Positions 6,577 to 20,000 of a stretch of 20,000 nucleotides of DNA are shown one piece after another (positions within the stretch are counted from its first letter, which is position 1; each line of letters starts with the position of its first letter). Under the pieces are notes generated by a model, which was not told where the DNA came from, did no database searches, and was given only the letters and a program-made list of their open reading frames with translations. The DNA is taken from positions 55,606 through 75,605 of the forward strand of contig JACPAV010000028.1 of assembly GCA_016180645.1 (NCBI GenBank). Direction: 5' to 3'. The position numbers and the translations under genes were made by a program. This DNA is from Nitrospirota bacterium. GTDB lineage: Bacteria > JACPQY01.

Positions 6577-7695
6577 ATGAAGATCATTGTCATGGGTGGC
6601 GCGGGCGACATGGGGAGCCGCGCGGTGGAGGACTTGGCTTCTTCGAAAGGAGTCGCACGGGTCACGATAGCCGACCGGAATGCCGCCGCCGCGGAGAAAA
6701 TCAAATCCAGTCTGGCCGGAAAATCGGCCAAGGTCGAGGTCAAGGCGGTTGACGCCAACGACCACACGGCGCTCGTGAAAGCGATGAAGGGGCATGACGT
6801 GGTCGCTTCCGCCCTCGGACCGTTCTTCATGTTCGAAGCGAAGCTCGTGCGGGCGGCCATCGAGGCAGGAGTGAACTACGCGAGCATTTGTGACGAGGCG
6901 GATGCCGCCGAGGCCGTGTTCCGGGATTTCGACGTCGATGCGCGGAAGAAGCGCGTGACCGTCCTCACGGGCTTGGGGGCGAGTCCGGGCTTGTCCAATG
7001 TAGGCGTCCGGTTCATGTCCAAAGAAGTCGGCCGGATCAAGAAAGCCGAAATCTACGTCTACCAGCCTTTGGACGCCGGAGGAGGCGAAGCGGTCATTCG
7101 CCACATGCTCCACATCATGACGGGGAAGGTGGTGGCTTGGAGAGGCGGACGGAAAGTCACGGTTCGCGCATGCAGCCGGTCCAAGATCGTCGAGTTTCCG
7201 AAGTACGGCCGTGTCAAGCTGTGGAACATGGGGCACAGCGAGCCGTACACCGTTCCGCGCTATTTCTACGGCATCGAAGAAGTGGGGTTCTACATGGGCT
7301 ACGGCAAAGGGGCCGAATTTCTGGTGTGGCCCGCGCGCGCCGGTCTCTTCCTGAACAAGCGGGTGACCGATGCCACGGTCCGGCTGCTACTGAGGTTGGA
7401 GGGCATGGACAAAAACAAGGAGCCGGGCTGGGGTGCCATCCGGATCGATGTCTGGGGCGAGAAGAAAGGCAAGGAGGAGCACCGGATGCTCTGCGGCATC
7501 GGTCAGATGCGAGAGGCTACGGGGCTGTCTCTCTCCATCGGCGCGCAACTTCTGGGAGAGAAAAAGCTACTCACGAAAGAGGGCGGCGTCTACGCGCCCG
7601 AGGGTTGCCTCGATCCGCAGGATTTCATCCGCCGCATGAAAGACCGCGGCCAACTCGCCTATGCCGACCTCGCCATGACCCAGCCGTTAGCATAA
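6577..7695 (+). CDS. Saccharopine dehydrogenase-like NAD(P)-dependent oxidoreductase
   Basis: N-terminal Rossmann MKIIVMGGAGDMG, ADRN, ALGPFF, GVNYASICD, GLGASPGLSN, GHSEP, C-terminal GGVYAPE. Confidence 0.88.
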   Translation: MKIIVMGGAGDMGSRAVEDLASSKGVARVTIADRNAAAAEKIKSSLAGKSAKVEVKAVDANDHTALVKAMKGHDVVASALGPFFMFEAKLVRAAIEAGVNYASICDEADAAEAVFRDFDVDARKKRVTVLTGLGASPGLSNVGVRFMSKEVGRIKKAEIYVYQPLDAGGGEAVIRHMLHIMTGKVVAWRGGRKVTVRACSRSKIVEFPKYGRVKLWNMGHSEPYTVPRYFYGIEEVGFYMGYGKGAEFLVWPARAGLFLNKRVTDATVRLLLRLEGMDKNKEPGWGAIRIDVWGEKKGKEEHRMLCGIGQMREATGLSLSIGAQLLGEKKLLTKEGGVYAPEGCLDPQDFIRRMKDRGQLAYADLAMTQPLA

Positions 7696-7748
7696 TCGGT
7701 GACAGTATACTTTATTACCTGCGAATAGAGTATACTGTCACCGATTAT
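7692..7748. repeat. 57-bp REP/REPIN-like hairpin of the GGTGACAGTATAC family; probable bidirectional terminator
   Basis: Perfect 20-bp inverted repeat ATAATCGGTGACAGTATACT (7692-7711) / AGTATACTGTCACCGATTAT (7729-7748), extended by T.G plus TATT/AATA, with a 7-nt loop. The arms match those flanking the RAYT. Confidence 0.93.
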
Positions 7749-9184
7749 ACGGCGAGTTTCGGCGGGACCCAGCCGCCGAAGGCGCGTTCGAGTTCGAGGG
7801 CGACGGCAATGGTGAGATGATCGTGGCCGGGGAGGGAGGCGACTTGAACACCGAGCGGGAGTCCTGCCTTGTTCAGTCCGAGGGGTGTCTGCGTGGAAGG
7901 CATCTCCATCACGTTCAGAATTGGCGTGTACAACCAGTGGAACGGGTATCGCATCGGAACGCGATGTTTCAGAGCAGGGAACGGATACGACGGATAGAGC
8001 ATCACTCCGTTCGGGCCGAGTTCACGCTTGAGCTCCTCTTTGAGTTCGCGACCGATTTGAAGAGCTTTCTCCGCTCTCTTGGGCATCCATTTCGGAATGC
8101 GTTCGAGCGCGGCCAAAGCGATGGCGGGAAATGTATGTTTGGATCGACCGACTAAAGATTTGATCAGTTCAGGGAGCGGACGGAAAGGTTTTCCATCGCC
8201 GAGCATCTCGGTGAAGGTCAGTCCGCCGGACGCGTTCAGCATCGCCCCCCATATCTCGAGTGTCTTCTTGAGGCCTTCGAACCGGGTGGAGCGGACCTTG
8301 GCCCCGCGCTGGGCAAGGTGCTCGGCGCATTTCGCCTGCGCCTCGCGGAGATCCGGACTCACCTTCAGGATTCCGTTGTTCTCCACGTTGAGGACGGTCA
8401 AACCCTTGATCTGGACTTTCGTCGGATCACCCAGCTTGAACGGCCTGCACTCAGAGTCTTTTCCGTCCGGTCCCGCCAGAATTCGCAGAACGGGCATGAG
8501 GTCCTCCGCCTTTCGGGCCAGCGGTCCCGTCGTCACATAGCGCAGCGCTTCATTGGAAGGGATAGGGAACTGGCCTGTTCCCGGCACGAGTCCGCCCGTC
8601 GGTTTGTGCCCGAACACGCCGTTGAAAAACGCCGGCATCCGAATCGATCCCGCGATGTCGGAGCCAAGCCCGAACGGCGTGCCGCCCGCGCTGATGATCG
8701 CGCCTTCGCCTCCCGAGCTTCCGCCTACGATTCGCCTTGGATCGTAAGCGTTGTTCGTGCGCCCGTAGATGGTGTTGTGGGTCTCCATCCACATGCAGAG
8801 TTCGGGAACATTGGTGATGCCCAACGGAATCGCGCCGGCTTTTCGCAGTCGGGCCACCGTGGTCGCATCACTCTTCTGAATGTCGTTCCTCCGCGAATAC
8901 AGCCCGCCCGTCCGCGGAAATCCCTCCACGCTGAAACATTCCTTGATCGTGCAGGGAACGCCGAGGAGGGGCGCGGCCTTTCCATCGGAGGCGCGGACCC
9001 GGCGATCTGCTTCTTTGGCCTCTTTTCGGGCCTCCTCGAATCGATTTCCGACGACGGCATTCAGCACGGGATTGACCTTCTCGATCTGGCGGATGTGGGC
9101 GTCCACGACCTCGGCGGAACTGACTTTGCGCTTGCGAATCATGTCGGCCAACGTGAGCGCTGATGCCTTCAAAAGATCGTCCAT
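7745..9184 (-). CDS. Amidase-signature family amidase (fatty-acid amide hydrolase 2-like)
   Basis: PCTIKE catalytic Lys, TNVPE, GGSSGGEG, GSDIAGSIRMPA (Ser-cisSer-Lys triad), GLPLGVQ; SD AAGGA. Confidence 0.95.
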   Translation of the reverse strand: MDDLLKASALTLADMIRKRKVSSAEVVDAHIRQIEKVNPVLNAVVGNRFEEARKEAKEADRRVRASDGKAAPLLGVPCTIKECFSVEGFPRTGGLYSRRNDIQKSDATTVARLRKAGAIPLGITNVPELCMWMETHNTIYGRTNNAYDPRRIVGGSSGGEGAIISAGGTPFGLGSDIAGSIRMPAFFNGVFGHKPTGGLVPGTGQFPIPSNEALRYVTTGPLARKAEDLMPVLRILAGPDGKDSECRPFKLGDPTKVQIKGLTVLNVENNGILKVSPDLREAQAKCAEHLAQRGAKVRSTRFEGLKKTLEIWGAMLNASGGLTFTEMLGDGKPFRPLPELIKSLVGRSKHTFPAIALAALERIPKWMPKRAEKALQIGRELKEELKRELGPNGVMLYPSYPFPALKHRVPMRYPFHWLYTPILNVMEMPSTQTPLGLNKAGLPLGVQVASLPGHDHLTIAVALELERAFGGWVPPKLAV

Positions 9185-16000: not shown

Positions 16001-16045
16001 GCCGACTTCTGGGCCCTCGTCAAGATCGCCCAGACGATCAAGTAG
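13025..16045 (+). CDS. Secreted/lipoprotein CehA/McbA-like PHP-fold metallohydrolase with carboxypeptidase-regulatory-like beta-sandwich domains, 1006 aa
   Basis: Signal peptide ending ALWTC; GDFHVHA, SSDHD, GNELT, GHFN, VNHP, IELYNG, AVSDTH, TNGP and AFTNPVFVD motifs; central GTV.DSSG..LAGVRV...LPAGTYSLSA domain. Confidence 0.88.
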   Translation: MPRSSRFSIAFGAVFVAAAMGVALWTCSDSEDKSASSVRVEFDLDKLIGPTEGTGAGAKKITSESDLIGGEAAQGRVGDTLLQNDKIRVIIQQPDRNIGPGPFGGNIIDGDIVRSDGKGQDVIGEISVFFNLGRTVDAKTVEVVRDGSKGGAAVVAATGPDEVLDYLNIRSVVSSYLPGLGDSLPVNPDEDMPLTITNYYILKPGDSAVRFVTAIHNEGSTDQILLAGDLLDSGGTVEFFNPSSTLAGFGYKTAIPEKMNFLGFRGKQSSYAYAPPLKDGKENAAYLAISGVAGTVIGTVNVIQTLLSPPPLRASTEGALVVPAGGTASYERWVAVGTGSLSTVTDALYSARQIPTGQVEGTVADSSGSALAGVRVSAINNLGAAVTQFLSDASGKFSGTLPAGTYSLSAQVPGRLVTQKGSVTVSPGAVTAGKVVLSKLTQVSVNIASPGGTALPGKVSFLCADTCPEEKSSQLRDISYDSVGDPIFQQDFIDNSGKATVAVAPGTYKVVVSRGITYSLWPNDFRWNGDVSKSGGYDLTLAEGETKSVAATLAKVVDTSEYLSGDFHVHAINSPDSPVPNLERVITFLGEGVDVLVSSDHDYVTDFAPTVKDLNAGSYLATIVGNELTTFDYGHFNGFPVQVKAGSINGGAFDWGGGTGPSAHPGAIFEQFLAEPGEQVVQVNHPDWGYFKYILLDVKSGATAEKPSKFRMADPEGSTSADTKLLSEKFNAIELYNGFDAKRFNVCANWWLGLINRGVVTTGTAVSDTHQWRATQSGFPRSYIRVGAGKDKISPFDEAAFVAATNAHRLFGTNGPFVRLHAANAKGEKVETGDTLASGGSGQTITFTVEVQTPAWFKVNKVDLISNVTDTIPAAGKTNDQSPKPLATQEVKLTDADLQAGAEGGADYKRYVATVTFTDAPQKDSYYVALVSGEGNLYPVVTDSVAPFAFTNPVFVDVNGGGWKPMVSRQAPPRWAPEVLARVNPAKRQATEADFWALVKIAQTIK

Positions 16046-16055
16046 GGGAATTAAA

Positions 16056-16075
16056 GGTGACAGTATACTCTATTT
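16056..16075 (+). repeat. Left repeat arm flanking the RAYT (GGTGACAGTATACTCTATTT)
   Basis: Exact reverse complement of 16842-16861; contains the RAYT stop codon (CTA at 16070-72). Confidence 0.92.
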
Positions 16076-16756
16076 CTTGGCCCGTCGGCCGCGCGGTCGG
16101 CCCTTCGGCCAGCCGCGTTTGCGCGGGAGGAGGACCCGCCCGAGCTTCTTCTCCCACCGCCTGACCCAGACCAGGTCACCCAAGGGGCGACCCGTCCGTC
16201 CACTCGTGCGAATCCCTTCCAACTCGGCGGGATTCTCTTCGCCCTTCAGGAACGCCGCCCAATCGGATTCCATTTCGCGGAACGGGCTGGACTTTACCAA
16301 GCGGTCGGGTTCCCCCGTCGCATGATGCCGGGCACTGGACCATCGGTGGTCTTGGGCGCGCTTCACCATCCCCGCCCGCACCGGGTTTCGCTCCACGTAC
16401 CGCGCCACGGCCAGAAGATGTCGGTCCTTCTCGATGGGGAAGGAATGGAATCGCTCCTGGAAGAGGTGGCCTCGAACACCCTCCCGGAGGTTGACTCGAA
16501 GCGTGTACTGGCGATGGGTCTCGCCGATCGCCCGCGCCAGGGAATCGGCACGGCCGGGCACGACGAGCAAGTGAATGTGGTTGGTCATCAGGCACCACGC
16601 CCAGATTTCCAAATTGTGCTGGGACGCCGATTCGGCCAGGAGATCGAGGTAGATCAAACGGTCCTTGTCCGAATGGAAGAGTTGAATGGAGCGGACCCCT
16701 CTCTGAATCACATGGTGAGGGGCACCAGGGACGACCACGCGAGCCAATCGCGACAT
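16070..16756 (-). mobile_element. REP-associated tyrosine transposase (RAYT; Y1/HUH, IS200 TnpA superfamily), 228 aa
   Basis: MSRLARVVVPGAPHHVIQRG N-terminus, AWCLMTNHIHLL (HUH), GHLFQERF, YVERNPVRAGMV (catalytic Tyr), WSSA; basic tail KGRPRGRR. True start is ATG 16756; the TTG at 16792 is part of the -35 box. No tnpB. Confidence 0.93.
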
Positions 16757-16763
16757 GAGGCGG

Positions 16764-16792
16764 ATCGTAGGGCGGGTCGCGGCCGCTGTCAA
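16764..16792 (-). promoter_or_regulatory. Sigma70 promoter of the RAYT, leaderless transcript
   Basis: TTGACA (16792-87), 17-bp spacer, TACGAT (16769-64), 7 nt, then ATG 16756. Confidence 0.75.
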
Positions 16793-16803
16793 GAGCTATT
16801 CAT

Positions 16804-16863
16804 GTATACTGTCACCGATCATCCTGCTGCGGGGGTTAAGCAAATAGAGTATACTGTCACCGA
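16804..16863 (-). repeat. Two right-hand repeat arms upstream of the RAYT
   Basis: GTATACTGTCACCGA at 16804-18 and AAATAGAGTATACTGTCACCGA at 16842-63 (45-bp period), both inverted relative to the left arm. Confidence 0.92.
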
Positions 16864-16896
16864 ATATATAAGGACGACCCGGGGAGTCCACATGAA

Positions 16897-19784: not shown

Positions 19785-19905
19785 GCCCGCCCGACGGGGT
19801 CCGGGGTCTCCTTCGCCCATTTCGGACGGCCACCCCGTTTCCCCAATGTCCTGACCTTAGCTCGACTTTTGCCATTTTTTGAAAGGTTTATGTTGGTCCT
19901 TATGC

Positions 19906-20000
19906 GTAGGGGAGGGTCTTCAGACCCTCCCGACAAGAGGGAGCAAGTAGGGGAGGGTCTTCAGACCCTCCCGACAAGAGGGAGCATCTGAAGATGCTCC
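19906..20000. repeat. GTAG-family REP cluster (REPIN/BIME-like), truncated by the window end
   Basis: GTAG-GGGAGGGTCT-TC-AGACCCTCCC at 19906 and 19947 (41-bp period, identical linker GACAAGA), then the inverted variant GGGAGCATCTGAAGATGCTCC at 19980-20000. Confidence 0.92.

Follow-up and report, generated by a model that had tools for sequence, protein, structure and literature searches.

A probable TIRtron with a one-base change in its arm head, and its dispersed arm doublets, in a Nitrospirota genome

The window analysed here, a stretch of 20,000 nt from a Nitrospirota bacterium (contig C36:55606-75605 of a genome of 4.72 Mb in 65 contigs, with 60.8% G+C), contains a gene for a Y1 transposase that is bracketed by inverted arms, and a second site where two such arms are joined without the gene. 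The classification of this locus as a TIRtron is well supported. The full reading, which we consider probable, is that the locus is a TIRtron, its gene a TIRYT, and the arm doublets scattered over the genome miniature non-autonomous derivatives, moved in trans without target duplication; that TIRYT mobilises the doublets is something we infer from the chemistry of the enzyme family and the anatomy of the elements. Since TIRtrons have been known since 2013, the locus is a new example and not a new system; what is new, judging from the sequences compared, is a family member whose arms have a one-base change, specific to this lineage, in the conserved head.

TIRtrons and TIRYTs were defined by Di Nocera, De Gregorio and Rocco (BMC Genomics 2013, 14:522, PMC3733652). 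In the available text of that paper, the terminal inverted repeats (TIRs) lie at about equal distance from the gene and may overlap its ends, some of them share the motif GGGGWSAS, and TIR families are moderately abundant, occurring as singles, dimers and clusters; the authors proposed that TIRYTs form TIR families as REP-associated tyrosine transposases (RAYTs) form repetitive extragenic palindromes (REPs), and called for binding and cleavage assays. Quentin et al. (2018, PMC6006769) described, in the sections accessible, a subclass 2.1 of RAYT-like proteins with a median of 238 aa, equal to Group 1 of Bertels; no REPs were found there beside subclass 2.1 genes, which were said to correspond probably to the TIRYTs, with flanking inverted repeats that are mostly GGGG[AT][CG]A[CG]. 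As for Group 1 itself, the consulted part of Bertels et al. (2017, PMC5581495) presents it as exceeding the other RAYT groups in size and spread, and as one of the two that most resemble insertion sequences, with 6.3% duplicates, some on plasmids, and a mean of 12 copies of its flanking 16-mers. The locus described here corresponds to TnpA-Y1 subclass 2.1, or RAYT Group 1, and its arm family may be listed in Figure 9 or Additional file 5 of PMC3733652, or in the supplements of PMC6006769.

The locus and the arm family in the genome

The features of the locus and of the gene-less site are as follows, with positions counted along the window.

16050..16075, + strand: downstream (left) arm, with an AT-rich outer part, the core GGTGACAGTATACT and an inner CTATTT
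16070..16756, - strand: TIRYT gene, 228 aa from the ATG at 16756; the longest open reading frame starts at TTG 16792 and has 240 aa
16764..16792, - strand: promoter-like site TTGACA-17-TACGAT, a consensus match only
16804..16822, - strand: proximal upstream arm (core GGTGACAGTATAC), with 60 nt between the first G of the arm and the ATG
16842..16867, - strand: distal upstream arm, full length; 16842-16861 is an exact inverted copy of the left arm
7692..7748, no strand: gene-less arm doublet, a 57-nt hairpin element with a 7-nt loop

A preliminary description of this DNA had reported a Y1 gene without tnpB between exact 20-bp inverted arms, and inspection of the sequence confirmed it base for base, 16056-16075 (GGTGACAGTATACTCTATTT) being the exact reverse complement of 16842-16861. 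The third arm (GTATACTGTCACCGA, 16804-16818) and the stop codon within the left arm were likewise as claimed; the TAG of the open reading frame (ORF) 16792..16070 (-) is read from the complement at 16070-16072. No tnpB adjoins the Y1 gene among the immediate neighbours checked, which are unrelated genes for a 1006-aa protein with a CarboxypepD_reg domain and a radical SAM/SPASM protein; the left arm begins a few bases past the stop (16043-16045) of the 1006-aa gene, which lies upstream.

Regarding the doublet at 7692-7748, it was present 8 kb from the gene with the 7-nt join that had been described, and its arms are alike except at one position, where the hairpin has a G-T pair. It sits between the convergent ORFs 6577..7695 (+) and 7745..9184 (-), and the TAA stops of both fall inside its outer ATAAT/ATTAT. 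The core GGTGACAGTATAC has five matches in the window (7698+, 7730-, 16056+, 16804- and 16849-), compared with 0.09 expected from shuffles, and none of 200 shuffles reached five. No arm has a GTAG head and a single arm cannot fold alone, both as first noted.

Genome-wide, GGTGACAGTATAC has 60 exact copies, and 96 with at most two mismatches, and it was not found in 40 other genomes searched, only one of which belongs to the same family. Taking a doublet as a + arm paired with the following - arm, 33 were found, 22 with a spacing of 32 nt, five with 31 nt and six with other values; one has a third arm beside it. Ten singlets (at most one mismatch) include three that flank the gene, one in the triple and one that looks like chance. 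The head is GGTGACA or a near variant in 31 of the 33 doublets and GGGGACA in the other two, at C49:28988 and C55:6936. These two carry the head GGGGACAGTATACT at a spacing of 43-44 nt; they could be remnants of the arm type before the change, or repeats of another paralogue.

The doublet is an element of 57 nt, composed of ATAATCGGTGACAGTATACTCTAWTT, about 5 loop bases and then the inverse; as DNA hairpins, the doublets have a mean energy of -18.8 kcal/mol, versus -3.4 for shuffles. Among the 22 doublets with the 32-nt spacing, the mean pairwise identity was 97% in the two 14-nt cores, 75% in the outer 6 nt, 54% in the central 17 nt and 29% in the flanks; the difference between cores and centres means that the former were kept constant while the loops were scrambled at a fixed length.

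As for their location, 57 of 74 arms lie outside all ORFs of at least 120 aa, which make up 95% of the genome. With genes approximated crudely by the longest ORFs of at least 150 aa that do not overlap, 32 doublets were placed between genes, 19 of them convergent, 7 tandem and 6 divergent; convergent pairs account for 616 of the 3117 neighbour pairs of the genome. Gene 3' ends that face a doublet are close to it, 40 of 45 within 33 nt and 30 of 45 at -11 to +7 nt; for 5' ends the count within 33 nt is 7 of 19. The preliminary description had proposed counting the motif and looking at its inverted pairing and intergenic bias, and the analysis covered all three (60 copies, 33 doublets, 57 of 74 arms outside ORFs); its view of the locus as a transposase with a non-autonomous element family agrees with the 60 exact arms and the 31 doublets of the GGTGACA type.

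One site stands apart: at C7:28045-28920, two doublets with 94% alike centres, 812 bp apart, enclose an ORF of 244 aa (28112-28846, -), an arrangement that resembles a gene held between two element copies. The N-terminal piece of this ORF that was scanned, 78 residues, has no Pfam family.

The protein, its homologues and the arm head

The product of the ORF is a Y1_Tnp protein (PF01797, E-value 1e-9 in a Pfam search), and its start at ATG 16756 agrees with the homologues and with the called protein. The protein has an intact HUH motif, NHIH, and an intact tyrosine motif, RYVERNP; H60 and H62 of the former and Y120 of the latter are invariant in an alignment of 23 sequences, and so is the C-terminal block TGRPLG. 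The C-terminal half is conserved and its tail is basic. The best solved relative is E. coli TnpA-REP (PDB 4er8), both by sequence (profile E-value 9e-8) and by fold (Foldseek E-value 3.8e-10, TM score 0.72 on the target, with an AlphaFold model of pLDDT 91). The model has a small, confident helical region at the C-terminus; the C-terminal half was not matched to a known fold because the Foldseek matches span the Y1 core alone. The last residues, PRKRGWPKGRPRGRR, have low model confidence, and we take this tail to resemble an AT-hook. TIRYT is the single copy of its type in the genome, where six other Y1 paralogues are at most 37% identical to it.

With subclass 2.1, as described in the accessible sections of PMC6006769, the protein shares its length (228-240 aa versus the median of 238), an NHxH motif (NHIH), FQ, Y...NP, a conserved C-terminal extension, the lack of a canonical REP nearby and a wide, patchy spread across phyla. 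Table 1 of that paper gives NHVH or NH[YF]H, W[EQ] or FQ, and YIELNP or Y[IV]HLNP as motifs of the subclass; NHIH, LFQERF and YVERNP of this protein are near to these and not identical letter for letter, a comparison made by motif, outside the hidden Markov models and MCL clustering of the authors. In contrast to the subclass as there described, this protein matches neither Bac_DnaA_C nor another helix-turn-helix Pfam family.

The protein family is large, with 7425 of 8000 candidates scoring at an E-value of at most 0.001. Besides the window's own protein, the best matches are metagenomic and 64-66% identical, and the named homologues include Omnitrophota, Hydrogenedentota, Aminicenantes and Rhodospirillales. 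Flanks were compared in 80 homologue loci from species genomes of many phyla, 72 with enough flank and 68 under stricter flank needs. An inverted repeat that brackets the gene and scores at least 14 was present in 46 of the 72 loci, in many phyla; the highest score in any of 10 shuffles per locus was 13. Of the 68 loci, 35 had GGGGWSAS upstream in the right orientation, 42 had it inverted on the downstream side and 28 had both, with wrong-orientation controls of 3 and 6 of 68. The homologues thus carry related flanking repeats, as had been anticipated.

Upstream of the homologous genes, the consensus reads AATTCCGGGGACAsnATACTTAATTATTGACA, and in 25 of 35 homologues 51-57 nt separate the first G of the arm from the first matched codon, the distance being 54-60 nt in the 20 closest; the proximal arm of the window, 60 nt from its ATG, fits this family-wide position. 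The 8-bp palindrome AGTATACT, which had been pointed out within the arms, is incidental, as the homologues have CACAATAC, CACCATAC or similar at that place; as a functional hairpin it was rejected for its lack of conservation.

The change in the head became apparent with the closest relatives, a set of 22 loci that are 58-67% identical to the query (the top 18 of 80 metagenome loci plus four lower-ranked ones, at 58-66%). Where upstream flank was available, arms of the GGGGACAG[GT]nTAC type were present there in 20 of 21 loci; on the downstream side they were present in 19 of 22, of which set three loci had almost no flank on that side. A GGTGACA arm was found in none of these 22 loci. The head of the window's arms, GGTGACAG, agrees with GGGGWSAS at 7 of 8 positions and has T for the third G in all of its about 60 copies; the G-to-T change is therefore a trait of the whole family of this lineage, and in this respect the locus differs from GGGGWSAS, a motif typical of TIRtrons but not obligatory for them in the available text of PMC3733652. 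In the 23-sequence alignment, R86L and H185S are the only positions at least 80% conserved in the others and different here (residues 86 and 185 are conserved in 18 of 22 and 20 of 22 homologues, respectively); that these two substitutions might go with the change of the head is a lead only.

Regarding the claim that the arms follow a recognition logic different from that of REPs, the non-GTAG part holds and the novelty does not, since the available texts already describe TIRYTs and TIRtrons with GGGGWSAS (PMC3733652), the corresponding subclass 2.1 (PMC6006769) and RAYT Group 1 (PMC5581495). The accompanying statement that the REPs of RAYTs start with a GTAG or CGTC guide was half wrong, as CGTC REPs have no dedicated transposase according to the consulted part of PMC3733652.

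The upstream arm is also tied to the promoter-like site of the gene. This site, TTGACA-17-TACGAT (16792-16764), is a match to consensus that ends 7 nt upstream of the ATG, a distance that implies a leaderless or near-leaderless mRNA; the TIRYT transcript is thus suggested to be leaderless and controlled by the arm. In the homologues, TTGACA adjoins the inner end of the upstream arm. Since the proximal arm adjoins the promoter of the gene, the predicted binding of TIRYT to its arms probably also controls the expression of its own gene.

Mobility, recognition and the rival readings

Evidence on mobility comes from other genomes. The pattern GGGGACASNNTAC was counted in five of them, together with its reversed form as a control: there were 6 matches in G041 (control 1), 32 in G042 (control 1), 40 in G043 (control 2), 28 in G044 (control 9) and 14 in G045 (control 1). 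G043, a metagenome-assembled genome (MAG) of a Planctomycetia bacterium, has 12 gene-length arm pairs, which are 93-96% identical in DNA and end sharply at GAATTCCGGGGACAC. Since two of these pairs sit on contig ends with a flank in common and could be the same copy, the number of full copies is at least 11. In G042, a gammaproteobacterial MAG, a single gene-length pair is accompanied by 14 short doublets, in the same layout as the genome of the window. Taken together, these two genomes indicate that the family occurs both as insertion-sequence-like copies and as a single gene with miniatures. In addition, outside several copy ends in G043 (L095-L099), the outer part of the arm is partly repeated another one to four times in GGAATTCC-like form; these repeats may be footprints or a preferred target.

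The TIRtron reading also agrees with the anatomy given for these elements in the available text of PMC3733652: a RAYT-like Y1 gene between long terminal inverted repeats unrelated to GTAG REPs, with arms at a set distance from the gene that can overlap its 3' end, and dispersed copies as singles, dimers and groups. The size of the family differs from Group 1, as there are 60 arm cores here versus the mean of 12 flanking 16-mers in the consulted part of PMC5581495.

According to the proposed mechanism, two arms of about 26 nt would pair on single-stranded DNA, forming a tight hairpin of about 25 bp in a doublet and a panhandle at the gene. A TIRYT dimer would then recognise, within the stem, the conserved head, which is GGTGACA in this genome instead of the family's GGGGACA, and Tyr120 would cut at the foot of the stem, the element being moved or copied in trans with no target duplication; the copies that persist would be those packed against gene 3' ends. 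A more detailed version is offered tentatively: TIRYTs might have a recognition mode not known from Y1 transposases so far, reading the linear head (GGGGACA..ATAC) in the duplex of the paired arms where others use a small hairpin and a guide tetranucleotide, with the AT-hook-like basic tail gripping the AT-rich borders and the arm doubling as operator of the leaderless promoter, and the head change together with R86L and H185S might be a natural specificity switch. If this switch is real, it is directly testable against the two GGGGACA-type doublets of the same genome.

However, it should be noted that several observations weigh against the TIRtron reading with mobile doublets. Neither an empty site nor an excision product nor a copy-number polymorphism was observed; the sole same-family genome among the 40 is without the motif. 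The doublet centres are nearly unrelated at a fixed loop length, with only the pair on C7 94% alike, a pattern that gives no hint of a recent burst and is not explained by a simple master copy. Compensatory changes in the stem are few (0-2 of 22 per position), and stem covariation therefore gives no argument. In 19-20 of the 22 doublets both borders are AT or TA, a dinucleotide that might either belong to the palindrome or result from a target duplication of 2 nt; this border is uninformative because it is self-complementary and continues the palindrome. As for the protein, it scores 71.8 bits with NCBIfam REP_Tyr_transpos (NF047646), below the curated cut-off of 80, and its C-terminal half gave no helix-turn-helix match (Bac_DnaA_C, HTH_23, HTH_28) at E-values up to 0.01. 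Finally, a bench test of any TIRYT was not found in the full-text literature searched, which leaves subscription journals outside. Logan contigs from one groundwater metagenome study (four runs, three of which may be the source of this DNA) were compared with the whole window; they span the doublet as well as the gene locus, and no join skips either. Given that contigs drop rare variants, this absence says nothing about mobility.

The main rival, compatible with the TIRtron reading rather than exclusive of it, is a domesticated state in which the enzyme moves nothing, the arms are selected binding sites or operators, and the doublets are two-way hairpins at convergent gene ends that act in termination, mRNA stability or DNA structure. 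We hold this to be rather unlikely. In its favour, the TIRYT gene is single copy, the doublets are strongly enriched at convergent gene ends with stop codons often inside the element, the promoter adjoins the arm across phyla, and RAYTs in general are argued to behave like co-opted genes (PMC5581495, consulted part); the nearly constant cores around scrambled loops of fixed length fit it at least as well as they fit mobility. Against it, the TIRtron is multicopy in G043 at 93-96% identity, Group 1 is one of the two most insertion-sequence-like RAYT groups in the accessible sections of PMC5581495, the hairpins have no T-run, a terminator-like site was not predicted at the gene locus, and about 30 dispersed copies would still require a way of spreading.

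That the doublets are ordinary miniature inverted-repeat transposable elements of an unrelated DDE transposase, for instance a TA-targeting one, with the Y1 gene merely inside one of them, is very improbable: the AT/TA borders speak for it, yet these extend the palindrome, and direct repeats of at least 3 nt flank only 0-1 of 22 doublets, so that there is no target duplication of that size; moreover, homologous genes of many phyla lie between like arms at a fixed distance from the start codon, which rules out a chance insertion.

Other known systems close to this one deserve a comparison of their own. These are the REPIN-RAYT systems (Bertels and Rainey 2011, PMC3116915) and E. coli TnpA-REP, reportedly bound to a REP hairpin in PDB 4er8 (Messing et al. 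2012, PMC3479197). The locus shares with them a single-copy Y1 enzyme flanked by its own repeat, extragenic inverted doublets that fold into long hairpins, and the catalytic fold; it differs in lacking both a GTAG guide and a hairpin within the unit arm, and in an arm head that is conserved across phyla instead of evolving with each host. With the TnpA of IS200/IS605 elements (IS608, ISDra2; PDB 2vjv, 2xm3) it shares the Y1/HUH fold and the expected single-strand cut-and-join chemistry without target duplication, whereas here the terminal inverted arms take the place of subterminal hairpins, the motif is Y...NP and not Y...Q, and the protein is single copy with an extra C-terminal half.

Membership of the locus in a classical REPIN-RAYT system (Groups 2/3), or in the IS200/IS605 insertion sequences, is the least probable reading of all and was rejected on the defining features (foot, self-folding, cut-off, Y...Q, subterminal hairpins and multicopy state): the Y1_Tnp domain, the E. 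coli REP transposase as best solved relative and a gene in single copy accompanied, as in REPIN systems, by a population of doublets are in its favour, but a GT[AG]G foot and a hairpin within the single arm are lacking, the NCBIfam score is below the cut-off, and the true GTAG REPs of this genome adjoin two other short RAYTs; as for IS200/IS605, Y...NP replaces the Y...Q of IS200 (Table 1 of PMC6006769, in its available text), subterminal hairpins and tnpB are absent, and the paralogues are at most 37% identical.

Other Y1 genes and repeats of the genome

One genome of 4.7 Mb thus combines TIRYT and its roughly 30 doublets with two TIRYT-like genes that have other arms and two short RAYTs with GTAG REPs. 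It is a compact natural comparison, to which the one-base head variant adds ready-made substrates for tests of DNA recognition by TIRYT. The discovery is modest, and the descriptive detail it adds consists of the extended arm consensus, the promoter adjoining the arm and the placement against stop codons.

The two TIRYT-like genes are long (360 and 320 aa) and stand in tandem at C48:52168-54623, each between inverted arms with the head GGGGTCAAGTCTTGA; this arm family has about 28 copies of a 14-mer and is a second, separate TIR family of the genome, and one of the two genes has a weak Bac_DnaA_C match. In all, weak, sub-threshold matches of this kind were found in three of the four long Y1 paralogues; those on C46 and C52 have no repeated flanks.

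Regarding the short RAYT genes (156 and 157 aa, both Y1_Tnp), they lie at C25:34767-35903 and C25:104361-106260, flanked by GTAG-headed REP hairpins whose 14-mers have about 128 copies in the first family and about 56 in the second. The first of these REP families fills the last 100 bases of the window (19900-20000), and it is preceded at 19856-19898 by an AT-rich stretch of 43 nt that belongs to another repeat family, with 14-mers in up to 55 genome copies.

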